Shown here: one piece after another, positions 10,210-64,000 of the stretch
Position numbering within the stretch: position 1 is the stretch's first letter
Layout of the letters: each line of letters begins with the position of its first letter
Assembly (NCBI GenBank): GCA_040879145.1
Contig: JBBDKX010000036.1
Location: 434 to 64,433, forward strand
Source of the DNA: Candidatus Spechtbacterales bacterium
Lineage (GTDB): Bacteria; Patescibacteriota; Minisyncoccia; Spechtbacterales; 2-12-FULL-38-22
Reading direction: 5' to 3'
Length of the DNA: 64,000 nt
Notes under the pieces: model-generated
What the model saw: the letters and a program-made list of their open reading frames with translations, nothing else
What the model was told of the DNA's origin: nothing
Database searches by the model: none
Program-made: the position numbers and the translations under genes

Positions 10210-11883
10210 CTATATTCTCTCTGCAAGATCGCGTGATACCTGCTCTAAAATAGCGCCGCTCATGTTAATAGCATCTTCAAAATTATTCACAACTCCGTCT
10301 AATTGAGCTTCGTAGACCTCATTTAGAATTTTCCCAAATTGGTGTCCCGGTTTCGCATTAAAGTGCTCTATTAAATGCCTTCCTTTAATTAGCGGGTCTG
10401 GTTTTTCATGTCCCACATTAAGTTCTTTAGCTCTTTGCAATAAAAAAACAGCGCCATCCTCACGCCATGCGTTAGTTGTTCCTCTGCCTTTAACATCTGC
10501 CTCCATCACCAAAACAAGCTCTTCAATACTTGCGGGTCCCAGCCGGCGAGCCAGGCGGTTAATAGTGGCGTCAGAAAGTTTTTTCTCCATAATATGCTCC
10601 TTGTTCATGGCCAAAAACATATGTTCCTGAATTAAAGGAAGCACGCGTGACTCTATCTCTTTGCCAAACTCCATTTTTGATAAAAATTTCTTTGCGGTTA
10701 AAACTCCCGCCTTCTCATGTCCGTGACTTATCCATCTTCCGTCTTTGTTTTCGGTAACATCCGGTTTGCCCACATCATGCAAAAGAGATGCAAGCATTAT
10801 TACAAGAGCATCATCTCCTTCCAATTTTTCTCTTGCTACTATGCTGGCGGCAACATCAGTCGTCATTTTTGTATGTATCCACACATCGCCTTCCGGATGC
10901 CACTCTTTTTCCTGCGGAGTACCCTCTAAAGCAGTAATTTGAGGGTGCAAAACTTTTAATGCGCCTGTTTGAAGCGCAACCTCCAACCCAACTGAAGGAC
11001 GCCTGCTTTTTAAAAGTAGTTTTTTCCACTCTTCTGTTATTCTTGCTGTGGGTAATTCTTTAAACTCATCTTCTTTGGTTATTTGTCGACACAGTTTAAG
11101 TGTTTCATCATTAACTTTAAATCCAAAACGAGCAGCAAATTGCGCCACACGCAAAACACGCAGAGGGTCGTCAATAAATGTTTTTGGATCTGTAGCGCGC
11201 AACACTCCTTTCGCAAGATCTTTGTGTCCGCCAAAACTATCTATTATTTCTCCTGTAAGCGGGTCCTGCGCAAGTGAATTTATTGTAAGGTCGCGCCTGC
11301 GCGCGGCCTCTTTTGGAGTAAGTCCGGGGTCGCCCTTTATTTCAAAACCCCTGTGCCCGTTTCCGTTTTTTGATTCGGTTCTTGGAATTGATATATCAAA
11401 TTCATCTTCGCCAAATTTTGCTTTTATAACACCAAAAGACCGACCCACAGTATCCATATGATCGGGGTTAATTTTTTCTAATATGCTCTCTATTTTGGAA
11501 AGTTCAACGCCGTATATTTCAATATCATAATCCTTACACTCTCTACCTAACAGCGCGTCTCTGACACCGCCACCCACCAAAAGAGCTCTCCCTCCTACCT
11601 GTTTTATTTCTTTTGCTAAACCTATAGCGGGCGTGGGAATATCTATAATACGCTCACCTTTCGCGGTAATTTTTTTCCACACACCTCCCCTTGCCTCAAA
11701 TACCCCAACCGGCCTCTCTTTCTCAAATACTTCCCTCATATCACCTTTATACGTAGCGAAAACAACCTGTCCGTTAACAGGGTCTATTAATTGCGTAATT
11801 GTAACACGCGTGCCTTTTGGCTGCCTTGCGCGCATTGTCAAAAACGGAGGTATGCTTTTGTAGATAGTTGGTTTACAAGTCAT
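10210..11883 (-). CDS. cca: CCA-adding tRNA nucleotidyltransferase with an HD domain and an ~85-aa N-terminal extension
   Basis: LLVGGGVRDALLG..DYDIE head motif, and a HD..HDVGK phosphohydrolase region. Confidence 0.85.
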   Translation of the reverse strand: MTCKPTIYKSIPPFLTMRARQPKGTRVTITQLIDPVNGQVVFATYKGDMREVFEKERPVGVFEARGGVWKKITAKGERIIDIPTPAIGLAKEIKQVGGRALLVGGGVRDALLGRECKDYDIEIYGVELSKIESILEKINPDHMDTVGRSFGVIKAKFGEDEFDISIPRTESKNGNGHRGFEIKGDPGLTPKEAARRRDLTINSLAQDPLTGEIIDSFGGHKDLAKGVLRATDPKTFIDDPLRVLRVAQFAARFGFKVNDETLKLCRQITKEDEFKELPTARITEEWKKLLLKSRRPSVGLEVALQTGALKVLHPQITALEGTPQEKEWHPEGDVWIHTKMTTDVAASIVAREKLEGDDALVIMLASLLHDVGKPDVTENKDGRWISHGHEKAGVLTAKKFLSKMEFGKEIESRVLPLIQEHMFLAMNKEHIMEKKLSDATINRLARRLGPASIEELVLVMEADVKGRGTTNAWREDGAVFLLQRAKELNVGHEKPDPLIKGRHLIEHFNAKPGHQFGKILNEVYEAQLDGVVNNFEDAINMSGAILEQVSRDLAERI

Positions 11884-11898
11884 GCTTTTTAAACTTAC

Positions 11899-11926
11899 TT
11901 AGCACCCTCTGAGGGTGCTAAGTAAG
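11899..11926. repeat. 28-bp hairpin-forming repeat (ttagcaccctctgagggtgctaag), left copy
   Basis: Near-palindrome; a second copy at 12503-12530 brackets the tRNA-like/ZnF segment. Confidence 0.7.
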
Positions 11927-12037
11927 ACAGAAATTATCCTCACCTGAGTCTCCACTGGGCATTGCCCATGGAGAGAGTGGAAACTCAGGTGAGGACAGGA
12001 GACAACACGATTAAACGTGTTGTCTCCTGTGTTGTCT

Positions 12038-12274
12038 TCAGTGCGAAAACGCGCTGAAGACGGACCGCAGAAACCTCTTCTTTTGGGGCTTCTCGGTCGG
12101 AGTGGGGGCAGTGGTGGAGGTGGAAACCGCAGCTGTCTTGTTGCGATTCTCCGCATTGCGCCGACGCTCGTTGCGACTGCCGCGGGTAACTCCACCACGG
12201 TCGTGATACACGGAATGAGTCTCCGCATATCGATTTGGAACGCGCTTCCCACATCCGGAAACATTGCACTTCAT
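12038..12274 (-). CDS. small Arg-rich protein with an N-terminal C2H2-like zinc finger (C3,C8,H20,H24)
   Basis: MKCNVSGCGKRVPNRYAETHSVYH (C-x4-C-x11-H-x3-H), preceded by the strong RBS aaggaggagcaaATG; lies within the GC-rich island. Confidence 0.4.
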   Translation of the reverse strand: MKCNVSGCGKRVPNRYAETHSVYHDRGGVTRGSRNERRRNAENRNKTAAVSTSTTAPTPTEKPQKKRFLRSVFSAFSH

Positions 12275-12344
12275 TTGCTCCTCCTTAAGGTACGTTTGAG
12301 GGACTTTCCCTCATATAAAAGCAAGTTTTTGATGCTTTTATTCG

Positions 12345-12420
12345 TGGCTGAACCGGGATTCGAACCCGGTATACTTTACCGCTTGAGGCGGAGTTTTCCA
12401 CACGTTGCCGTGCTCAGCCA
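12345..12420 (-). ncRNA. tRNA-like element (perfect 7-bp acceptor stem, perfect T-arm GGTTCGAATCC, degenerate D/anticodon arms; anticodon loop reads CCUCAAG, i.e. UCA)
   Basis: Reverse complement GGCTGAG...CCGGGTTCGAATCCCGGTTCAGCCA; a possible pseudo-tRNA or att-site remnant. Confidence 0.35.
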
Positions 12421-12502
12421 TGCGAGAGGCAGTTTACGACTTGCCCAGGTCGAAATATGCTACATGCCGTTCCTCCTTAGAAAACCTGCTCCTATGAACC
12501 CC

Positions 12503-12530
12503 TAGCACCCTCTGAGGGTGCTAAGAGTTC
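12503..12530. repeat. 28-bp hairpin-forming repeat, right copy (cctagcaccctctgagggtgctaaga)
   Basis: Same palindrome as at 11899-11926. Confidence 0.7.
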
Positions 12531-18667: not shown

Positions 18668-18687
18668 AAATTATGTGGTTGCCGGGG

Positions 18688-18775
18688 TCAGACCCCTCCC
18701 GCTTCGCTCAAGCGGTCTGACCCCAACTTTTAACTCAAACCCTGCATGGTCGCTTCCTAAATATATTTTCATAAG
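18688..18775 (-). pseudogene. orphan, diverged 5' fragment of an rpiB-like gene (MKIYLGSDHAGFELK) fused to a GC-rich hairpin
   Basis: atgaaaatatatttaggaagcgaccatgcagggtttgagttaaaa, followed by the palindrome ggggtcagacc...ggtctgacccc. Confidence 0.5.
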
Positions 18776-24187: not shown

Positions 24188-24347
24188 CAAAAGCCGGTCA
24201 GGGCATCCCACACTTTAAACCCGTATGCTGCGCGCTGCGGGTTCTCTTATTTATATAATGTGGAAATTTTCAGATTTTGACGCAAATCTACCTGCCTGCC
24301 GGCAGGCAGGGGCGCTGACAACGAAATGCACCAAATTTTAAAGTTCA

Positions 24348-26861: not shown

Positions 26862-27197
26862 TCATAAATACTGTCCCATGCCTTCGTCTTCTTCCTGTTG
26901 TGAAGTTTGATTGCCGTGCTCACCCCGTTCTCTATAAAACATGCCTGCATACTGCTCCTGCGCGCGAGCTATCTCATTTTGAAGTAATATGCGGCCGGTT
27001 TGAAACCCGGTATTATACCCGGACTCATATCCGGCCTCATGTCCGTCAGTATGGCCTGCTTCGTAAGCGGATGAGTTTATAATTACCAAAACATCCTTTT
27101 CTGACACGCCCTGCTTTCTAAGCCGGTCAAAACGTTTAAAAATATCGTTTGCAAGAATCTTGTTAGGGTCGTTGTCGTCTGAGACAGAAGTATCCAT
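26862..27197 (-). CDS. hypothetical acidic protein (111 aa)
   Basis: Intact ORF. Confidence 0.45.
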   Translation of the reverse strand: MDTSVSDDNDPNKILANDIFKRFDRLRKQGVSEKDVLVIINSSAYEAGHTDGHEAGYESGYNTGFQTGRILLQNEIARAQEQYAGMFYRERGEHGNQTSQQEEDEGMGQYL

Positions 27198-27314
27198 ACA
27201 AAAACCTCCTTTTGTTAATCATGTGCTAAGTTTATAATTATATTTTTGAAGAGATTTGTCAATAAAAAAATAGGCCCACAACTTACTTTAAATAAGTTGC
27301 GGGCCTCTTGGTAC

Positions 27315-27590
27315 TCACAGATACCCACCTTGGCTGGACAGTTCTGCCTGCGGTGGCTCGCTGGCGGGTCTTTGTCGTTGTTGCATCTGCTGGATGGCAA
27401 GAGCCATGCCCTGCTCTCTGCCTGCCTGCATATTAACCTCAGCAACTTTCTGAAGGTTCACACCTATCAGAAAAGACTTTTCTGCGATACTCTTTTGAAT
27501 ATTGGCCTGGGACAGCCCTTCAGCGAGCAATGCTGGCCGAAGGGCTTCAGCTGTTTCCAGAAAAATCTCCAGAATAGGATTGTTCATCAT
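27315..27590 (-). CDS. hypothetical small protein (91 aa) with a strong RBS, GC-rich
   Basis: aaaggaggaaaatgATG. Confidence 0.5.
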   Translation of the reverse strand: MMNNPILEIFLETAEALRPALLAEGLSQANIQKSIAEKSFLIGVNLQKVAEVNMQAGREQGMALAIQQMQQRQRPASEPPQAELSSQGGYL

Positions 27591-27647
27591 TTTCCTCCTT
27601 TCTATGATAGAGCCCCGGGTTCCAAAGAACCCGGGGCCGGTTGGTGC

Positions 27648-27785
27648 TTAGGATTCCTTGTCCTTGGAATCCTGCTTCTTCTTGTCGGCCTTCTTGTCGG
27701 CGCGACGTCGCTTGTTGGTGGGGTTGGGCGGTCCGCAGACCGGCCCGTCGCACCCACAACGACCACCAATGACCTTTTGAGCCAT
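27648..27785 (-). CDS. 45-aa Cys-rich basic peptide (MAQKVIGGRCGCDGPVCGPPNPTNKRRRADKKADKKKQDSKDKES); not in the ORF track (under 60 aa)
   Basis: RBS aaaggaaagaaATG; followed by a perfect 11-bp GC hairpin (27612-27640). Confidence 0.35.
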   Translation of the reverse strand: MAQKVIGGRCGCDGPVCGPPNPTNKRRRADKKADKKKQDSKDKES

Positions 27786-27828
27786 TTCTTTCCTTTCTTG
27801 CTTCACTAAAAGAGCGAAGCGGGTCTTG

Positions 27829-28029
27829 TTACTTCACAGGAATATGACTTACGTCAAATCCCTGAAGCTCGCACTGTTCGGCCTGCCAGCCGGTGATATA
27901 AAAGCCCGAGTATTCCTCAGACTGCTCTATCCACCGGACACATTCCGCTTCCTCCGCCCTGTTGACCCCCATGTGCAGCACAAGCCACACAAGCAGAAAA
28001 AACAGGAAAAACAGAATTGCATTTCGCAC
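27829..28029 (-). CDS. small secreted or membrane protein (66 aa), GTG start
   Basis: ggaggtagcactGTG; N-terminal hydrophobic ILFFLFFLLVWLVL. Confidence 0.4.
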   Translation of the reverse strand: MRNAILFFLFFLLVWLVLHMGVNRAEEAECVRWIEQSEEYSGFYITGWQAEQCELQGFDVSHIPVK

Positions 28030-28165
28030 AGTGCTACCTCCTTCAAGGTACTAACTGACAACATTATATCATACTTTATATAATTTGTCCAGTATTTCTG
28101 GCAAGGACTGTCCTTGCCAGAAAATATATTTCAAAAGTTGTCCAGCACTACCATGAGTCATTAAT

Positions 28166-28184
28166 ACACCGGTCTGACCGGTGT
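28166..28184. promoter_or_regulatory. palindrome ACACCGGTC-N-GACCGGTGT, copy 1 of 3; flanked on both sides by the palindrome ctggcaaggactgtccttgccag
   Basis: Other copies at 28719-28737 and 29351-29369, all intergenic within the small-gene island. Confidence 0.5.
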
Positions 28185-28228
28185 CTGGCAAGGACTGTCC
28201 TTGCCAGACATGCATGCGAGTAAACAAT

Positions 28229-28268
28229 AAAAAGCCCCCGCACTATCCAGCTGGAGTGTGGGGGCGAA
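28229..28268 (-). terminator. rho-independent terminator for the 28278-28616 gene
   Basis: Reverse complement gcccccacactccagctggatagtgcgggggc + ttttt. Confidence 0.6.
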
Positions 28269-28277
28269 TCCCGGATA

Positions 28278-28616
28278 TTATTCCGGGATTATGTCTGACT
28301 TTTTGCAATGTTCTATAAACTTTCGTACAGATTCTTCATACTTTTCCCTGCTAAAATTCGGCATATCTTTCCTAAGATGATAGGGAATATTGCCCTCTAT
28401 AGAAGGTATAACTACCCCACCTCTTTCAAACCTTCTGCGCTCGTTTTGCGGCAAATCCAAAAAAATATCTATATCTTTTTCGGTGTAACCTGTAATTCTG
28501 TATTCCCGCTCAGCACTTTGTACAGGATACGAACGAGAGGGATTTCTTCTAAAAAATTTCCTCAAAATTCTGTGCGCGCACTTTCTCTCATCTCTTCTAA
28601 AAAGACTCATCCGCAA
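28278..28616 (-). CDS. hypothetical basic protein (112 aa)
   Basis: Intact ORF. Confidence 0.5.
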   Translation of the reverse strand: MRMSLFRRDERKCAHRILRKFFRRNPSRSYPVQSAEREYRITGYTEKDIDIFLDLPQNERRRFERGGVVIPSIEGNIPYHLRKDMPNFSREKYEESVRKFIEHCKKSDIIPE

Positions 28617-28685
28617 CTCCTTTATTTATGAACTGCCAATATCATAACAAAAAACCAATCTTAGTCAACCAAATTTTAATATTAA

Positions 28686-28712
28686 ATGGGAAAACCGGTT
28701 TTCCCATTTAAT
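28686..28712. terminator. palindromic hairpin aaatgggaaaaccggttttcccattta (second copy at 40478-40504)
   Basis: Perfect stem; T-rich flanks. Confidence 0.5.
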
Positions 28713-28718
28713 TTTAAA

Positions 28719-28737
28719 ACACCGGTCTGACCGGTGT
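28719..28737. promoter_or_regulatory. palindrome ACACCGGTCTGACCGGTGT, copy 2
   Basis: Identical to copies 1 and 3. Confidence 0.5.
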
Positions 28738-28789
28738 AAAAAAAGCCCCGCACGTTGAAGTTTGGGGCTTCTTGTGCGGGGCTAAAGAG

Positions 28790-29224
28790 CTATGTAAGTG
28801 CGATTTTGGATCCGTTTGAAAGTATCCAGAATACAAAATCGTTTTCTGGGATTCCAATCTTAGCTCCAACTTCGCGGAGTCGCTTGTGAATCTTTTCCGG
28901 AACAGTGCCGGTTTGTGATTCCACGCCCAGAATCGCATTTACAAGATTCGCAAAAAGGTTGAGGGACGCTGCCTCCTCCTGCGTCATACCTACTTCAAGA
29001 CGTTTACTGACCAGAGTCCGCTTCAGTTCCCAAGCGGGACCTTCTTCCGTCTGACGATGGCGCGCGCCCAATCTCTCAAGAGCGCCTCTGATCTTTCGCT
29101 CTGCAGATGCTAAATTGCCCTCCAGCGATTCCACTTTACAGGAGTAGGATTCATGCAAATTGTTCCTGTTGTCAAGAACGTGATGTAGGTGACCCCATTC
29201 CTCAACGGTGAGTTGAATTTTCAT
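28790..29224 (-). CDS. hypothetical protein (144 aa), GC-rich
   Basis: RBS gaaaggaaaaagaATG; a terminator hairpin at 28740-28788 follows. Confidence 0.5.
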   Translation of the reverse strand: MKIQLTVEEWGHLHHVLDNRNNLHESYSCKVESLEGNLASAERKIRGALERLGARHRQTEEGPAWELKRTLVSKRLEVGMTQEEAASLNLFANLVNAILGVESQTGTVPEKIHKRLREVGAKIGIPENDFVFWILSNGSKIALT

Positions 29225-29350
29225 TCTTTTTCCTTTCTTCGGGTTTTGCAAATACTGCGAAAAGTATATCACAGTTAAACTAAAAAATCAAGTTTCAGTT
29301 TTAATTCTCGGCAATTTTTATATTTGGATGCAATTCTAAAAATCATTAAT

Positions 29351-29369
29351 ACACCGGTCTGACCGGTGT
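29351..29369. promoter_or_regulatory. palindrome ACACCGGTCTGACCGGTGT, copy 3
   Basis: Identical to the other copies. Confidence 0.5.
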
Positions 29370-29431
29370 ATAGCAAGGTCGGTACTTAAAAAAGATCTGC
29401 CGAAGCAACTACATCTTTCTCAAATACTGCC

Positions 29432-29510
29432 CTGTGTAACTATTTTTAATTTTGCTAACTTCTTGCGGTGTGCCTTGTGCTACGACATACCCGCCCTCAT
29501 CACCTCCTTC
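29432..29510 (-). repeat. orphan duplicate of the last ~78 bp of uvrA (encodes ...[10 protein letters not shown])
   Basis: 78/79 identical to 29889-29967 (the true uvrA 3' end); flanks the GIY-YIG insert. Confidence 0.85.
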
Positions 29511-29575
29511 CCGATTTTGTTCAAATCTACGATTTGACCCAAAATCGTGGATCCTCGATTTCTCAACAACAGTTG

Positions 29576-29821
29576 CTATTTTTTATTGATAAGCCGCTCA
29601 ATGGCAGCTCGACTTTTCCATCCTTTGATTTGCTTCTCTCTCCTGCGCGCCTCGCTAAGCGTTTTATACTCTTCTAAATGCACTAATTCCCAAGGCTGAG
29701 CTGTCTTAGTGGATTTAACACAACCTTGATTATGTCGCTCTAAGCGACCCAATATATCATTACAAGACCCGATGTAATAAATACCTTTATTTAAAGATTT
29801 AATAATATAAATATAGTACAT
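29576..29821 (-). CDS. small stand-alone GIY-YIG nuclease-domain protein (YhbQ/UPF0213-like)
   Basis: [30 protein letters not shown]...KGWKSR. Confidence 0.75.
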
Positions 29822-29854
29822 AGATAGCAACTGTTGGAGAAATCGGGACAGGCC

Positions 29855-32689
29855 CTATTGATTTAGGACCTTTCGGAGGTATTGACCAGTGTAACTATTT
29901 TTAATTTTGCTAACTTCTTGCGGTGTGCCTTGCGCTACGACATACCCGCCCTCATCACCTCCTTCCGGTCCTAAATCAATCAAATGGTCGGCGTTTTTCA
30001 CAATATCCAGATTGTGCTCTATAACCAAAACTGAATTTCCTGTTGTAACAAGATCTTTAAGTACGCTTAAAAGTTTATTTACATCATCGGGATGCAGTCC
30101 TGTTGTGGGCTCGTCCAAAATATACAGAGTTTGTCCCGTTCCCCTGCGCGCAAGCTCTGTCGCAAGCTTTACCCTTTGCGCCTCCCCTCCGGAGAGCTGT
30201 GGCGCGGGCTGGCCTAAATGAATATACCCAAGTCCTACCTGAGCCAAAACATCCAGCTTGTTACGAACATAGGGTATGTTTTCAAAAAACTCGCGGGCTT
30301 CATCTACTGTCATCTCCAAAACATCGTGAATATCTTTTCCTTTGTATTTTATTTCCAAAACTTCTTTGTTATATCTTTTCCCTCCGCATGTTTCACACTC
30401 CACATAAATATCGCTCATAAAAAACATTTCTACCTTTGTTACTCCCCCACCCCTGCAACGCGAACACCTGCCACCTTTTACATTAAAGCTAAAACGACCA
30501 GGCTTATATCCACGTGCCCGCGATTCAGGAAGCCCCGCAAAAAGTTCACGAACCGGAGTAAACACATTTGTATAGGTTGCGGGATTACTGCGAGGCGTTC
30601 TGCCTATGGGCGACTGATCAATTACAATAGCTTTATCCAGATTATGCAAACCGATGATGCTTTTATGCTCGCCGGGCATGGTGTGCGCGCCGTGAAACTC
30701 TCGCCTTAATACTTTTGCCATAACATCATTTACAAGCGAACTCTTGCCCGAACCCGAAACACCTGTTATTGCAACAAGTTTGCCGAGCGGAATTTTCACA
30801 TCAATGTTTTTTAAATTATTGTGCCTTACTCCCTTAACGGTTAGATATTTTTGCGCATTACTTTTATTTTTTGGAATTTGAGCTTTGACATTTGACATTG
30901 GCATACGTTCGCCTACACGGCGTTTGCCATTCATATATTCCCCCGTCAGCGATTTAGATTTAAGGAGTTGATTATAAGTTCCCTCAAAAACAACCTCTCC
31001 CCCGTGTTTTCCCGCACCCGGACCAATATCTATAATATAGTCTGCTTCTTTTATGGTTAGCGTGTCGTGTTCTACGACCAAAACACTGCTACCCAAATCC
31101 CGCAACTCCTTCATGGTATCTATAAGGCGCTTTTGGTCCCGTGCGTGAAGACCGATTGAGGGTTCGTCCAAAATATACAAGACCCCGGCAAGATGTGAAC
31201 CCAGTTGTGTCGCAAGTTGAATGCGCTGCGCCTCTCCCCCGGACAAAGTTCCGGCCTGACGGGACAAAGTTAGGTAGTGCAACCCTACTCTACGCAAAAA
31301 ATTAAGCCTGTTGACTACCTCTTTAACTACCGGCTCCATTATCTTTTTTTCCGCGCTATTAAAATCTTTACTGTTAGGCAATTCAGAAAAAAAGACGTGC
31401 GCGTCATTAATGTGGTAGCTTACAACATCGTAAATGTTTTTACCTGCTATTTTTACAGACAGGGCTTCTTTTTTAAGACGCTTACCCTGACAAGCGGGAC
31501 AGTTGCGAATATTCATATATTTTTCTATCTCCGCGCGAGTGTGCTCACTCTCAGTCTCCTTGTGCCTGCGTTCCAAATTAGGTATTACGCCTTCCAGGTT
31601 TTCATCTCCGTAAAGTACAATATCCAAAGCTGACTTAGGCAAATCTTTTATCCTCACACTCATTGAAAAACCATACTTTTGACTCATCCTGTGGAGTATC
31701 GTCCAATACCATCCCTGGCGGCCAACCCTATGCGAAGCCATCATCCAAGGACGTATAGCTCCCTCATCCAGTGTTAAGTTTTTATTCGGCACAACAAGCT
31801 CAGGGTCAACTTCCATCTTTGTACCGAGGCCCGAACACTCGGGGCAAGCGCCGTAAGGACTATTAAATGAAAAAGTGCGCGGTTCTACCTCGCGCATGCT
31901 AAACCCGCACTTAGGACAAGCAAACTTTTCAGAAAAAACATGCTCGTCATACACAGGTTGAACCTGTGTATTTTTATGTAAAACTATTAGCTGTCCCTTT
32001 CCTATCTTTAAGGCCGTTTCTATGGAATCTAAAAGCCGTATTTTATCAAGCTCCTTTTCTATTTCCAACTTATCTACAACAACATCTATTGAGTGCTTTT
32101 TCTTAGGATCCAATTCTTTCCCCAATGCTTCTGCGAACGCCATGATAGTGCCGTCAACCCGCGCACGCACAAAACCCGCACTTCCAACCTCTTCTAAAAT
32201 TGCCTTATGCTCACCCTTCTTTCCTGAAACAAGAGGTGCTAAAATCACAACTTCGCCCTTCAGTTTTTTAACTGTTTCCGATATTTCCTGTGGACTGGAT
32301 GCCTCAATTAAAATATTACAATTAGGACAATACGGCTTTCCAATATGCGCAAACAAGAGCCGTAAATAATCGTATATTTCTGTTATCGTGCCCACCGTTG
32401 AACGTGGATTTTTGGAAACCGTCTTTTGGTCTATCGCGATTGCGGGAGAAATACCCTCAATGCTGTCCACTTCCGGCTTATCCATGACACCCAAAAACTG
32501 CCTGGCGTAACTTGAAAGTGATTCTACATAACGTCTTTGGCCTTCCGAATATATGGTGTCAAAAACAAGTGAGCTTTTACCTGAACCGCTTACACCCGTA
32601 AAAACCACAAGACTATTCTTGGGAACATCAATATCTATATTCTTTAAATTGTGGGTTTTAGCGCCCTTTATTTTTAGTTTATTGGTCAT
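29855..32689 (-). CDS. uvrA: excinuclease ABC subunit A
   Basis: Two ABC ATPase modules (GVSGSGKSSL twice); zinc fingers CPKCGFSMREVEPRTFSFNSPYGACPEC; 944 aa. Confidence 0.95.
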   Translation of the reverse strand: MTNKLKIKGAKTHNLKNIDIDVPKNSLVVFTGVSGSGKSSLVFDTIYSEGQRRYVESLSSYARQFLGVMDKPEVDSIEGISPAIAIDQKTVSKNPRSTVGTITEIYDYLRLLFAHIGKPYCPNCNILIEASSPQEISETVKKLKGEVVILAPLVSGKKGEHKAILEEVGSAGFVRARVDGTIMAFAEALGKELDPKKKHSIDVVVDKLEIEKELDKIRLLDSIETALKIGKGQLIVLHKNTQVQPVYDEHVFSEKFACPKCGFSMREVEPRTFSFNSPYGACPECSGLGTKMEVDPELVVPNKNLTLDEGAIRPWMMASHRVGRQGWYWTILHRMSQKYGFSMSVRIKDLPKSALDIVLYGDENLEGVIPNLERRHKETESEHTRAEIEKYMNIRNCPACQGKRLKKEALSVKIAGKNIYDVVSYHINDAHVFFSELPNSKDFNSAEKKIMEPVVKEVVNRLNFLRRVGLHYLTLSRQAGTLSGGEAQRIQLATQLGSHLAGVLYILDEPSIGLHARDQKRLIDTMKELRDLGSSVLVVEHDTLTIKEADYIIDIGPGAGKHGGEVVFEGTYNQLLKSKSLTGEYMNGKRRVGERMPMSNVKAQIPKNKSNAQKYLTVKGVRHNNLKNIDVKIPLGKLVAITGVSGSGKSSLVNDVMAKVLRREFHGAHTMPGEHKSIIGLHNLDKAIVIDQSPIGRTPRSNPATYTNVFTPVRELFAGLPESRARGYKPGRFSFNVKGGRCSRCRGGGVTKVEMFFMSDIYVECETCGGKRYNKEVLEIKYKGKDIHDVLEMTVDEAREFFENIPYVRNKLDVLAQVGLGYIHLGQPAPQLSGGEAQRVKLATELARRGTGQTLYILDEPTTGLHPDDVNKLLSVLKDLVTTGNSVLVIEHNLDIVKNADHLIDLGPEGGDEGGYVVAQGTPQEVSKIKNSYTGQYLRKVLNQ

Positions 32690-40453: not shown

Positions 40454-40500
40454 AGTTTGATATTTATATTTTGACTAAATGGGAAAACCGGTTTTCCCAT

Positions 40501-40656
40501 TTATTTTAACTCTTCCAAGGTATCCAAAAGCTCCTTTTCTTTACTTTCAAGCAATTCTTCACTACGAGCATCAACTATTAACCGTAACTTCGCCTCCGTA
40601 TTAGATGCGCGAAGCAAAAAGCTCCAATCGGGATACTCAACACGCAACCCGTCCAT
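40501..40656 (-). pseudogene. remnant of a second, diverged phosphohexomutase C-terminal domain (DGLRVEYPDWSFLLRASNTEAKLRLIVDA...)
   Basis: Homologous to the pgm C-terminus (DGARVNFEELEGWGLVRVSNTGPNLTLRFEA) but only ~45% identical; no N-terminal domains. Confidence 0.45.
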
Positions 40657-57395: not shown

Positions 57396-57652
57396 TTATT
57401 CCGTCGTAAGCCCGTCTCGCCTGAGGCTTGCCGAGGTGGACGGGAATGAGGGAGCTTTGTGCAAATACCCGAAGCTTATAAGAAAAGGGTCTTGCCTTTA
57501 GGCCTATCTTTTGCGTGTGGGCAAAAGTAGCTGTCGCTTTTCCGTTAAGTAAGCGAGGTTTACCCGCCGAAGCCTTGGCGTAGGCTGGGCTGTATTTGCC
57601 AAAGCGAGCGAATGGCAGCCTGCCTGCCGGCAGGCAGGCGTGGAATAAAATG
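57396..57652. ncRNA. structured element copy 2 (same core as 14088-14286), with a 14-bp terminal inverted repeat and an embedded CCTGCCTGCCGGCAGGCAGG palindrome
   Basis: Conserved blocks ttttattccgtcgtaagc, gggaatgagggagctttgtgcaaatacccgaagc, aggcctatc, gcgaatggcagc, gtggaataaaat. Confidence 0.4.
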
Positions 57653-60060: not shown

Positions 60061-60415
60061 GCGGTTGAAACACTGACCGCTTTCCCTCTGTGTTTGTAAA
60101 AACACAGAGGTATGACTATTAGTACTACTCAGCTTAACCCCTCTCAGGGCTTACACTTATAGCCTATCAACCTGTTAGTCTAACAGGAGTCTAAGAGCTC
60201 TAATCTTGAGGCGGGCTTCGTGCTTATATGCTTTCAGCACTTATCCCTTCCGAACATAGCTACCCAGCGATGCTCCTGGCGGAACAACTGGTACACCAGA
60301 GGTTCGTTCACTCCGGTCCTCTCGTACTAGGAGCGAGTCCCCTCAAAGCTCAAGCGCCCACGGAAGATAGGGACCAACCTGTCTTGCGACGGTCTGAACC
60401 CAGCTCGCGTAGCGT

Positions 60416-60451
<36 letters not shown>

Positions 60452-60481
60452 CCAGCCCCAGGATACGCCGAGCCGACATCG

Positions 60482-60872
60482 CTGTCGATTTTTCTCTTGT
60501 TGCCAAGAGGATCGGACTATATCTTCATCCTATTGCGGACTTTAGGCGTTCTTAGCCATAGCCTCGCTTTTTATAATAGGAGTCGGCGTGTTGTCCTTCA
60601 AATTTTTTCGAAGAACCTCCCCTTTCGGGTCAGTCTCTACGGGGTCATAACCCAATTTGTATTCCATAGATGGAATAATATGTGGTTTAACGATCTGCTT
60701 AAGCAATGGAATACTCGATTAACCACAGGTCTTTGAAATTGAGTTAGACTTCCCACGGTATTGTCCATACGTATATTCTACCATTATTTGGTAGCGCTAG
60801 TGCATGGAGTTCACCGTTATAAGCCGAATTGTTTTTGTATGAGATTACTCTCATAGGCACCCCGATATGTTA
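60482..60872 (-). ncRNA. probable group I intron (~391 nt, no ORF) inserted at 23S position ~2500 (E. coli numbering) in the peptidyl-transferase region
   Basis: Interrupts GGCACCU | CGAUGUCGGCUC; 5' exon ends in U, insert ends in G; IGS GGGGUGCC pairs with the exon GGCACCU; UAGUC P7-like element. Confidence 0.6.
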
Positions 60873-61492
60873 AGGTGCCGAACCTCCCCGTCGATGTGGA
60901 CTCTCGGGGGAGACCAGCCTGTTATCCCCGGGGTAACTTTTATCTGGTGATCTTCCTCTTTTCTATAAAAGAAGGTCGGTTCACTAAGTTCTGCTTTCGC
61001 AACTCTCTACTCCAGTAAACTGGAGTAGAGTCTGTTACTTCCCTGAGATTAAAATCACAGGGTTTTACAGAGCGCGGCTTATTTGCCTTGCAGTAAAGCT
61101 GGCTTGTGCCTTTACACTATCGCTCCGATTTCCATCCGGAGCTAGCCAACCTTAATAAACGCCTCCGCTACCATTTAGGAGGCAAGCGCCCCACTTAAAC
61201 TACCTACCATCCACTGTCCCGAATGTGTTTAGCATCCGGTTAGTCACAGTATTTTGAAAGATGGGTATTTCACTGGCGACTCCACACTGGCCGAAACCAG
61301 CGCTTCAAAGTCTCCCCACTATGCTACGCAGCCAAAACACTGCAACAATAGAAAGCTGTAGTAAAGCTCCCGGGGTCTTTCCGTCTATCCGCGGGTAACC
61401 GGCATCTTCACCGGTACTGCATTTTCACCGGGCTTCTCGTCGAGACAGTTGTCCAGTCGTTACGCCTTTCGTGCGGGACAGAACTTACCTGC

Positions 61493-61541
<49 letters not shown>

Positions 61542-62341
61542 CGGCGCTTGTATCACCAGCTTTCCAGCGAACTGGAAAACCAACAATACTTAACGTTCCG
61601 GCATTGGTCAGGCGTCACCCCCTATACATCCCCTTACGGGTTCGCAGGGAGCTGTGTTTTTGATAAACAGTCGCTAGACAGACTTTAGCTGCGCCCTATA
61701 TTGCTATAGGGAAGGCATATCCCTAAGTTACGCCTAGTTTTTTTGCCGAGTTCCTTGACGAGAACTCACCCGTTCGCCTTGGTATACTCTACCTGCCCAC
61801 CTGTGTCGGTTTGCGGTACGGATTCATATCTATTAACCTTAGAAGCTTTTCTCGGAAGGTTGCTGGGAGGAATAATCTCCATTACAGAGACTTTTCCCGA
61901 CGCTTAGAATTGCCTTACGGCCACCTGGGCATTTCTCCCAGGCATTCCTTACGCAAGGAACACAAATCCAATAACATGCTCCCCTTACTAACCTCCGTCA
62001 CTCCGTCGAATAAATATGAAGAGATGGAATATTAACCATCTGTCCATCCCCGTGACCCTTTCGGGCCCCGGGTTAGGGCCGCCTAACCCTTGGCTGATTG
62101 ACATTGCCAAGGAAACCTTGGGCTTTCGGCGTGGGGGTCTCTCACCCCCATTGCGGTTACTCATGCCAACATTCTCTCTTCCTGCCGCTCCACCATGCCT
62201 TACAGCACAGCTTCAGCGCAACAGAAATGCTCTCCTACCACACACTACCCAAAGGTAGTGCATCCACGTCTTCGGTAGTAAACTTTAGCCCCGTTAAATT
62301 TTCAGCGCAGAAACTCTCGACTAGTAAGCTGTTACGCACTT

Positions 62342-62374
<33 letters not shown>

Positions 62375-62878
62375 AGCTGTTTGTGAATTTCTACATCTTT
62401 TCCCACTTAGTTTACATTTAGGGACCTTAGACTGTGATCTGGGCTGTTTCCCTTTTGAACATGGAGCTTAGCCCCCATATTCTAACTTCCTGCTATGACT
62501 TGATAGAATTCGGAGTTTATCTGATCTTACTCAGCAAATGCCTCGCAAGACCAATTAGTGCTCTACCTCTACCAAGATAAGGCAGGAGCTAGCCCTAAAG
62601 CTATTTCGGAGAGAACCAGCTATTACCAGGCTCGATTAGCTTTTCACTGCGACCCACGGCTCATCCCCTCCTATTGCATCAGAAGTGGGTTCGGGCCTCC
62701 CCCCGGTCTTACCCGGGGTTCACCCTGGCCATGGGTAGATCGCCTGGCTTCGGGTCTATTGCGTGCTACTTTAATTCGCCGTATTAAGACTCGGTTTCCC
62801 TATGGCTTCGTTCGTTAAAGAACTTAGCCTGCAACACACAATAACTCGTTGGCTCATTCTGCAAAAGGCACTGCGTCA

Positions 62879-63013
62879 CCCCTCACATGGAATGAATCCT
62901 GCTTACATTTCACTAAAAAGTGATGATGTTTTTAGCATTATTTTAATTTAAGAATATTTCCTGAACTACGATTTTACCCGCAGGCCAAGAAATATTCATT
63001 CCATGTGAGGGGC
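62879..63013 (-). other. ~135-nt AT-rich expansion hairpin in 23S domain I (replaces the short E. coli hairpin ACGCTTAGGCGTG)
   Basis: cccctcacatggaatgaat ... attcattccatgtgagggg closing stem. Confidence 0.5.
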
Positions 63014-64000
63014 TCCGCATCCTTGTAGGCATATGGTTTCAGGTTCTATTTCACCGCCCTCACCGGGCTACTTTTCACCTTTCCCTCACGGTACTTGTTC
63101 GCTATCGATCACCAAAGATATTTAGCCTTACCCGATAGGTCGGGTAGATTCACCCGAGATGGACGTGTCTCGGGCTACTCAGGATACACAACCGGTAATC
63201 AAAACTTTTAAAATACGGGGCTTTTACCCTCTTTGGCCGCCCTTTCCAGGGTCATTTTTCTAAGTTCTTCATACGTTATGTCGTGTCCTACAACCCCATT
63301 TTGTGCAAGCACAAAATGGTTTGGGCTCCTCCCTCTTCGCTCGCCGCTACTAAGGGAATACGTGACCTAATGGTCTTTTGTATCTTTTCCTCCGCTTACT
63401 GAAATGTTTTACTTCAGCGGGTACGGTCTCCGGCATAAAGCCGGAGTACTGTGGGTTTGCCACAGTGGGTTTCCCCATTCGGAAATCTCCGGATCAAAGG
63501 TTGCTACGCACCTCCCCGAAGCTTATCGCAGCTACGCCACGTCCTTCATCCCTCTTTGGTGTCAAGGCATCCACCATATGCCCTTATAAAATGTTACAAC
63601 ACTCAACGGAATAAGTGTTGTAACTACGGTCAATGTAGATCTAACTCTGAGTCGTAAAGGAAGGGTCTAAAGACCCCCTACAAACCAAAGTTAGATAACC
63701 GCGGAATTATAAGACTCTCTTGTTAGTCCTCTATCTATCAAATAAAATCAAACTTGAAAGATAAAGGACAATTGTATTCCATATAAATATAGAATACGGA
63801 TAACTTTTTATGTCTTGTCGTTGTCCTCTAACTTTTCCTGTAAAGTTTTGAGGACATATGAATCTCATAGAAAGACCTACAAGATTATTTGACAAAGTTC
63901 AACAAAAAAGCCGCTCGCAAGCGACTGTCTGAGTGCGCGCAAATTGTGGCGCATTAGCCGCTTGTCTTAAATTTCTTTATTGAGCTTTTTTGCATACTCA

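Follow-up and report, generated by a model that had tools for sequence, protein, structure and literature searches.

Here we describe a strain-specific island of five short open reading frames (ORFs), and the palindromes that recur in its spacers, beside the uvrA gene of a bacterium that is, by its NCBI names, a Candidatus Spechtbacterales metagenome-assembled genome (MAG) of the Patescibacteria, or Candidate Phyla Radiation (CPR). The DNA analysed is a single stretch of 64,000 nucleotides (nt), hereafter the window, and all positions are window coordinates. An initial annotation had listed five minus-strand ORFs of 91, 45, 66, 112 and 144 amino acids (aa), all of which exist at the places given, and had read the palindromes between them as operators or as recombination sites of a cassette array. 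The most frequent of these palindromes, P1, and its relatives in other genomes are the main subject of this report. Coordinates of the features are collected in Table 1.

The island beside uvrA

The insert is strain-specific and runs from the original end of uvrA (~29410) to the terminator at 27272, within a hypervariable gap between uvrA and VIT1; its left limit may lie as far out as ~26830. Its neighbours are uvrA, a GIY-YIG gene, VIT1 and GAPDH. The island had been thought to end at the GIY-YIG gene, but what borders it on the right is a remnant of the original 3' end of uvrA (~29410-29512), and the GIY-YIG gene lies beyond that remnant. The description of the island as an accessory module holds up, as relatives with 70-78% identical UvrA keep the order uvrA ... 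VIT1-GAPDH, with a gap that is empty or occupied by other small genes. In L046 (labels of this kind are our own, for loci in other genomes; UvrA 70% identical) the gap has no called gene and uvrA is followed directly by VIT1-GAPDH, in L043/L044 (78%) it holds four other small ORFs, in L045 (73%) it holds about 8 kb of other genes, and in L053 (72%) synteny is broken. Because the content of the gap differs among relatives, the island is best seen as the strain-specific fill of a hypervariable gap. A 175-aa gene adjoining VIT1 is also conserved in relatives, and the small genes of the L043 gap carry a Shine-Dalgarno (SD) sequence, whereas the housekeeping neighbours in L043 do not.

The codon usage of the island is atypical. 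When all six frames are scored for codon usage, the annotated one stands out clearly as the best in four of the five ORFs; the scores of these four (0.03-0.17) do not exceed the 5% quantile of fragments of host genes, for which the mean is 0.33. The G+C content at third codon positions (GC3) averages 0.37 in the host; the 112-aa ORF has 0.35 and the other four have 0.48-0.72. The earlier statement that the genes are G+C-richer than their surroundings is correct for those other four, which have 0.48-0.59 where the host averages 0.415, but not for the 112-aa ORF (0.383). As had also been noted, the products have no recognisable domains: searches with the five proteins (Pfam, PHROG, NCBIfam, PADLOC, PDB) returned nothing meaningful. 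No DNA-binding or helix-turn-helix (HTH) domain was detected in the island proteins with Pfam, NCBIfam and PDB sequences, nor any Pfam regulator domain, and an Rfam scan of the island gave nothing at the gathering threshold or at E < 0.01.

The 144-aa ORF, which in the NCBI annotation starts at a GTG (29272) and has 160 aa (locus tag WDZ40_04090), has the best codon score of its frames (0.17), and its product finds only itself among 5.8 billion clustered proteins. For the 110-aa protein, which starts at an ATG within the 112-aa ORF, an exhaustive HMMER search against 1.84 billion representatives returned itself and one spurious match to a repeat protein. Single-sequence AlphaFold2 (AF2) models of these two proteins were unusable (pLDDT 55.6 for the 144-aa and 53.2 for the 110-aa protein). 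An HTH in the 144-aa protein, where residues ~75-130 look XRE-like by eye, was considered and dropped, having no backing from Pfam, NCBIfam, PDB phmmer or AF2.

The 66-aa gene is the only one of the island with a homologue in the relatives' uvrA-VIT1 gap, a 63-aa ORF of L043/L044 that likewise has a hydrophobic N-terminus (tblastn E = 4e-12). The family alignment has 24 invariant columns, and from the sequence we infer a small membrane-anchored disulfide protein. The 45-aa ORF, whose GC3 is 0.72, has a codon score of -0.04, no better than that of the other frames and so indistinguishable from non-coding DNA by codon usage; it contains a 12-bp tandem repeat (27678-27701) and has no match among Pfam or PHROG families. 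The search for homologues of the 91-aa protein covered the relatives' loci and family libraries, though not global protein collections, and found none; its similarity to a 137-aa ORF of L043 is not significant (E = 0.24). The 91-aa protein and the product of a 111-aa ORF (26862-27197) both have an acidic/polar tail and then a G-x-Y-L C-terminus (…SQGGYL and …GMGQYL, respectively). Paralogy of the two was considered and rejected, as their pairwise similarity is not significant (E = 0.11).

The ORFs are organised into three autonomous expression units: the 144- and 110-aa genes stand singly, and the 66-, 45- and 91-aa ORFs form an operon. Every unit has a near-consensus sigma-70-type promoter, predicted from a consensus scan only, together with an SD and an intrinsic terminator. 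An AGGAGG-like SD had been assigned to every gene. This stands for the 91-, 66- and 110-aa genes, whose SD is of the AAGGAGG type (GAAGGAGG for the 66-aa and AAAGGAG for the 110-aa gene), while the 45- and 144-aa ORFs have only GAAAGGAAA. The contrast with the host is nevertheless larger than had been realised, with even a 5-mer SD present in only 2 of the 33 long host ORFs of the window.

Palindromes in the island and their relatives

P1, ACACCGGTCTGACCGGTGT, is present in three exact copies, and no further copy was found in the 64 kb even with three mismatches allowed. P2, CTGGCAAGGACTGTCCTTGCCAG, is present in two exact copies, starting at 28098 and 28185. For either palindrome, the number expected by chance is 0. 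A scan for perfect palindromes with arms of at least 9 and a loop of at most 6 found 29 in the window, where shuffled sequence yields ~1.25, and 8 of the 29 lie within the island's 2.2 kb, or 3.4% of the window (binomial P = 4e-6). The clustering is therefore real and non-random. A third palindrome, P3, had been missed by the initial annotation; it recurs once, at 40476-40503, in the spacer of two convergent genes. P2 was found neither elsewhere in the window nor in viral contigs, and P3 was likewise absent from viral contigs; public genome and metagenome collections were not searched for either.

The arrangement differs in part from what had been reported. A palindrome of 19-22 bp had been placed in every gap, but the gap between the 45- and 66-aa ORFs has none and that between the 91- and 45-aa ORFs has a different, G+C-rich hairpin, while the gap between the 112- and 144-aa ORFs also holds P3. 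The reported order P2-40 bp-P1-P2 is right, but the spacing is 45 bp and P1 abuts the right P2. The right flank of P1 copy c is a decayed P2 (repeat family D1, 81% identical over 58 nt to copy a), and this copy carries a terminator-like flag on the minus strand. The three P1 copies are singlets in the same orientation. Each lies 3' of one unit's terminator and at least 60 nt upstream of the next -35 box. All the island palindromes are upstream of predicted -35 boxes, with centres relative to the predicted starts at about -94, -104 and -119 for P1, -53 (left) and -140 (right) for P2 and -62 for P3, and none overlaps -35, -10 or +1. With a length of 19-23 nt, arms of 8-9 bp and a folding energy of -12.4 kcal/mol (z = -3.7), P1 has the form of the short (about 20-40 nt), G+C-rich stem-loops known as repetitive extragenic palindromic (REP) elements.

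P1 is not confined to the island. A scan of 596 Gb of genomes gave 29 exact matches; chance alone should yield ~2 for a uniform 19-mer, and a larger number in G+C-rich DNA. The low-GC, Patescibacteria-like contigs that carry the exact 19-21-mer are L012 and L023, both from one MAG, and the metagenome contigs L032/L036 and L033; none of these loci encodes any of the island proteins. The matches of the genome scan beyond those in L012 and L023 stand singly in other, G+C-rich genomes (Streptomyces, Rhodobacterales and others) and were judged to be chance or unrelated. We also set aside the plant-like contigs L030, L031, L034 and L035 (ENA OFG*), in which many paired ACCGGTCTGACCGGT motifs, spaced at 21-22 bp, stand beside a copia-type gag ORF; these motifs share the P1 core but probably belong to a eukaryotic transposon repeat that has nothing to do with P1.

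In L032, a 251-aa ORF (1839-2594) for an IS200-like Y1 transposase (Pfam Y1_Tnp, E = 7e-13) has two P1 copies before it and three after it. The best NCBIfam model for this protein is REP_Tyr_transpos, the REP-associated tyrosine transposase (RAYT), at 45.7 bits, against 16.3 bits for IS200. Its family has more than 2388 homologues, mostly labelled Patescibacteria, and the best 120 are 59-99% identical; the HUH motif (NHIHLL) and Y-x-H-T-N-P are invariant, the proteins are ~250-260 aa long with a variable insert, and some members have been named RayT by JGI. P1-family palindromes stand at the Y1 gene in five independent gene contexts (L032/L036, L037/L038, L039-L041, L042 and L047-L052). In all five they lie on both sides of the gene, within ~60 nt, which is the flanking arrangement of REP/RAYT systems, here in other Patescibacteria. 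The neighbours of the Y1 gene are housekeeping genes in each of the four further contexts fetched (all but L032/L036). The palindromes follow the design TTACA-nn-GGTC-W-GACC-nn-TGTAA, or the variant CAGGGGGCGACCCCCTG, and their stem bases vary among loci while complementarity is kept. In L047 the central base is A in the upstream copy and T in the downstream copy, so these two flanking copies are inverted with respect to each other.

Copies of the P1 family also lie in frame within ORFs, namely uvrA, a prmC-like (methyltransferase) gene and the RAYT genes, and leave these ORFs undisrupted. Besides the one in the window's uvrA, such sites are at L053:10721-10773, L012:4626-4650, L047:2123-2141, L037:10217, L039:10214 and L042:1696. 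The stretch ATACACAGGTTGAACCTGTGTAT in the window's uvrA is an insert that the two closest UvrA homologues lack, and the same loop of the L053 uvrA holds an exact inverted REP doublet with a 15-nt spacer (10721-10773). The copy in the prmC-like ORF encodes LHRSDRC, and those in the RAYT ORFs fall in the variable insert, encoding for example DTGLTRV. Further doublets occur at L032:1777/1810, and the intergenic pair at 18684-18724 of the window looks like a decayed REPIN, the inverted doublet of REP elements.

Table 1. Features of the island and P1-family sites of the window
Feature	Position	Strand	Remarks
144-aa ORF	28790-29224	-	orphan; predicted all-helical
Predicted sigma-70-type promoter, 144-aa gene	29263-29291	-	TTGATT-17-TATACT, with TG
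Intrinsic terminator, 144-aa gene	28738-28783	-	GCCCCGCAC...GUGCGGGGC, then U7; -23.4 kcal/mol, z = -5.4
110-aa ORF	28278-28610	-	ATG at 28610; 112 aa from TTG at 28616; basic N-terminus; orphan
Predicted promoter, 110/112-aa gene	28641-28668	-	TTGACT-16-TATGAT, with TG
Intrinsic terminator, 110-aa gene	28229-28265	-	-21.0 kcal/mol, then U-run
66-aa ORF	27829-28029	-	N-terminal hydrophobic helix; two invariant Cys
Predicted strong promoter, 66-aa gene	28063-28091	-	TGGACA-17-TATAAT, with TG; 11/12 consensus matches
45-aa ORF	27648-27785	-	Cys-rich, Lys-rich; coding status uncertain
G+C-rich hairpin between 45- and 91-aa ORFs	27612-27637	-	-26.3 kcal/mol; without U-run
91-aa ORF	27315-27590	-	SD AAAGGAGGAAA
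Strong intrinsic terminator closing the 66-45-91 aa unit	27272-27306	-	-25.5 kcal/mol, z = -8
P1 copy a	28166-28184		REP-family palindrome; RNA hairpin -12.4 kcal/mol
P1 copy b	28719-28737		REP-family palindrome; directly after 144-aa terminator
P1 copy c	29351-29369		perfect over 29349-29371; ~40 nt downstream of original uvrA stop, ~60 nt upstream of 144-aa -35 box
P2 left copy	28097-28121		immediately upstream of 66-aa -35 box (6 nt away); hairpin -20.3 kcal/mol
P2 right copy	28184-28208		TCTGGCAAGGACTGTCCTTGCCAGA; abuts P1 copy a; repeat family D6
P3, perfect 32-bp palindrome	28681-28712		ATTAAATGGGAAAACCGGTTTTCCCATTTAAT; fold -15.3 kcal/mol
Original uvrA 3'-end remnant	29410-29512	-	92% identical to 29870-29966 (repeat family D2); right border of island
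P1-family palindrome ATACACAGGTTGAACCTGTGTAT	31949-31971		inside uvrA ORF; encodes NTQVQPVY
Degenerate inverted doublet GGGGTCAGACCCCT / AGCGGTCTGACCCC	18684-18724		intergenic; 13-nt spacer; shares P1 core GGTCWGACC

P1 as a probable REP element

REP/REPIN-RAYT systems have been described from Stenotrophomonas, Pseudomonas and E. coli (PMC2817692, PMC3116915, PMC5581495). A RAYT gene flanked by inverted REPs is their defining arrangement (PMC2817692), and the REPIN is the replicative unit (PMC3116915). RAYTs are members of the IS200/IS605 HUH superfamily, in which each element has subterminal hairpins on one strand as its boundaries (PMC2817692, PMC3116915). Like these REPs, P1 is a short G+C-rich palindrome that lies outside genes, in the spacers 3' of them. 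In related genomes its family stands on both sides of a single-copy, housekeeping-like Y1 HUH gene, in some cases as inverted copies, and the sequence of the palindromes changes together with the transposase locus. L053 has a REPIN-like inverted doublet. Because P1 is present in genomes without the island, and its family flanks Y1 genes and has in-frame copies, it is best read as a REP-type mobile element that a domesticated RAYT-type transposase serves in other members of this bacterial group, and that has collected here in a strain-specific patch of small orphan genes beside uvrA, a reading to which we assign a probability of roughly 0.7.

The proposed course of events is modelled on the RAYT and IS200/IS605 enzymes. 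P1 would be a REP of the family that flanks the highly conserved, single-copy RAYT-type HUH/Y1 transposase in other Patescibacteria. The transposase would bind the P1 hairpin on single-stranded DNA, cut and rejoin it, and copies would thereby spread to sites that tolerate them. In a compact genome, the promoter/terminator spacers of a non-essential island would be among the few such sites, and it is presumably because they are tolerant that three P1 copies lie between a terminator and the next promoter. Once there, the copies would provide at most some hairpin insulation between transcription units. P2 and P3 are probably further low-copy mobile or terminator palindromes. P2 adjoins both P1 and a -35 box and recurs in decayed form next to P1 copy c; it may have a regulatory role or be part of a composite like the bacterial interspersed mosaic elements (BIMEs).

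Several observations weigh against reading P1 as a REP. Neither tblastn nor a profile search found a RAYT gene or remnant in the 64-kb window, and the Y1 protein of L032 scores below the 80-bit cut-off of the NCBIfam RAYT model. Classical REPs are dispersed, usually with more than 100 copies per genome, whereas the three exact copies of P1 are clustered within 1.2 kb, and the 64 kb of the window add to them a single in-ORF variant and a single degenerate doublet. REPINs are typically imperfect inverted doublets, while the P1 copies of the island are perfect palindromes, singlets and all in one orientation. In the RAYT loci that were fetched (10-20 kb each), REP copies stand only at or inside the RAYT gene, and REP copy number may for that reason be low in RAYT-bearing genomes too. 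P2, whose left copy abuts a -35 box, has no known relative. There are also differences from known systems: the P1 19-mer is identical across lineages, while known REPs are usually species-specific; P1 lacks a 5' tag of the GTAG or CGTC type and is flanked instead by TTAC/GTAA; it has in-frame copies in essential genes; and the length and variable insert of the Y1 protein set it apart. The initial annotation had itself named generic REPs, at high copy number everywhere, as the finding that would overturn its view. This came true in kind, as the P1 family does occur elsewhere, but high copy number was not seen in the window.

P1 is probably neither an operator nor a cassette recombination site. 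Were P1 and/or P2 double-stranded sites for a dimeric regulator that coordinates the units, whether an island protein such as the 144- or 110-aa product or a host factor, one might expect just such perfect dyads of 19-25 bp in promoter-proximal spacers, and the end of the left P2 copy 6 nt upstream of a strong -35 box, the lack of P2 in the rest of the window and in viral contigs, and the partial duplication of the P1+P2 composite upstream of the 144-aa gene (family D1) would all be in keeping with it. However, identical P1 occurs in genomes without any island protein, and P1-family copies flank RAYT genes and lie inside ORFs. The palindrome centres, moreover, all lie clear of the predicted -35, -10 and +1. 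A candidate regulator is also wanting, with no HTH or other DNA-binding domain detected and structure models unusable, and since the 144- and 110-aa proteins are orphans they cannot be what binds a site conserved across lineages. We therefore find the operator explanation improbable, and for P1 it is not supported.

A second possibility is that direct P1 copies are the ends of non-autonomous, IS200/IS605-like units, each carrying one orphan minigene and captured or moved in trans by a RAYT. Three same-orientation copies do delimit two complete promoter-ORF-terminator units (P1-144 aa-P1, 632 bp, and P1-110 aa-P1, 553 bp), both units are atypical in codon usage and have orphan products, and the hairpin-bounded elements of the IS200/IS605 superfamily (PMC2817692, PMC3116915) offer a precedent. 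But neither unit has a second copy in any collection searched, the window lacks a RAYT, and the P1 flanks share no defined cleavage motif beyond TCATTAAT in two copies. A build-up of REPs in any non-coding spacer is the simpler explanation, and it is doubtful that P1 ever bracketed cassettes. A bolder form of the idea would have direct P1 repeats delimit RAYT-mobilisable minigene cassettes, which a domesticated HUH transposase of Patescibacteria would capture or shuffle at a chromosomal hotspot, a single-strand counterpart of integron cassettes, with the same REP family editing essential proteins in frame; we offer it as speculation with little chance of being right. The least probable alternative is that the palindromes are terminator or insulator hairpins that arose and were duplicated locally with no link to a transposase, for although all are stable hairpins (-12 to -20 kcal/mol), two are flagged as terminator-like, P1 copy b has T/A runs on both sides and the second P3 copy lies between convergent genes, local duplication fails to account for identical P1 in other genomes, for the RAYT-flanking sites or for the in-ORF copies, a canonical terminator, stronger than the palindromes, already closes each unit just before them, and P1 copies a and c have no U-run.

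The island had been described as phage- or plasmid-derived, yet nothing in phage, plasmid or viral collections matches it: the five proteins have no PHROG match below E = 0.1, blastn against phages and plasmids gave none, and viral contigs hold no relative of three island proteins or of P1, P2 and P3. Its architecture is moron-like by analogy. Morons are autonomous promoter-gene-terminator units of lambdoid phages that sit between genes adjacent in relatives, and the island is similar in that every unit comes with a promoter, an SD and an intrinsic terminator of its own and is unlike the neighbouring genes in composition, and in that the units sit between uvrA and VIT1, which are adjacent in L046. 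It differs in being chromosomal, with no phage genes nearby and no phage or viral similarity found. Integron arrays, like the island, have short genes in the same orientation with repeated palindromic sites between them. An integron also has an intI tyrosine recombinase alongside, its cassettes mostly lack promoters, and its attC sites are imperfect palindromes, 57-141 bp long and with conserved R/L boxes, whereas the island sites are perfect palindromes of 19-25 bp from a RAYT-linked family and its units have their own predicted promoters. No integrase gene adjoins the island, the whole window not having been scanned for integrases. Lastly, Rickettsia palindromic elements (RPEs) are in-frame insertions of 100-150 nt in protein-coding genes, and the in-frame P1-family copies in the uvrA, prmC-like and RAYT genes recall them; these copies are nevertheless 21-27 nt, or a 53-nt doublet, and lie outside the island.

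Other elements and wider meaning

Further features of the window stand apart from the island. The GIY-YIG gene beyond its right border is an 84-aa ORF (29576-29830; Pfam E = 4e-19). On either side of it lies a copy of the final ~97 nt of uvrA (29415-29511 and 29870-29966), the two being 92% identical. The ORF is bounded by a 13-bp inverted repeat, CAACAGTTGCTAT (29567-29579 / 29824-29836), and is not present at the relatives' loci. It resembles a small mobile cassette on insertion of which the uvrA 3' end would have been rebuilt. The 23S rRNA gene (60099-63597) contains a group I intron at 60493-60884 (Rfam RF00028, 51.2 bits). A G+C-rich stretch of ~580 bp (11927-12502) without a convincing ORF is flanked by two copies of the palindrome TAGCACCCTCTGAGGGTGCTA (11894-12523); it has no Rfam match at the gathering threshold and could be an unannotated structured RNA or mobile element.

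Another palindrome, P5, CCTGCCTGCCGGCAGGCAGG, is found at 24291-24310 and 57618-57639, and in relatives at non-syntenic sites (L046:13022, L046:6056 and L053:11872), one of them inside the L053 uvrA. P5 may be a second mobile palindrome family. Because copies of P5 and of the P1 family both recur, short mobile palindromes would seem to characterise this lineage in general.

Most of what is known of REP/RAYT biology comes from Proteobacteria. Our literature search found no account of such a system in Patescibacteria, the nearest being the mention of a K07491 gene in an archaeon. Reading P1 as a REP explains the pattern at this locus without a new regulatory or recombination system, as a combination of REP-type mobile hairpins and strain-specific minigenes in a hotspot, and it carries a warning for annotation, namely that such palindromes are not to be taken for operators. 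For research on REPINs and on genome streamlining in the CPR, it would point to a strongly conserved RAYT family that has one and the same REP in different lineages, to a low REP copy number, and to in-frame insertions in the uvrA, prmC-like and RAYT genes.

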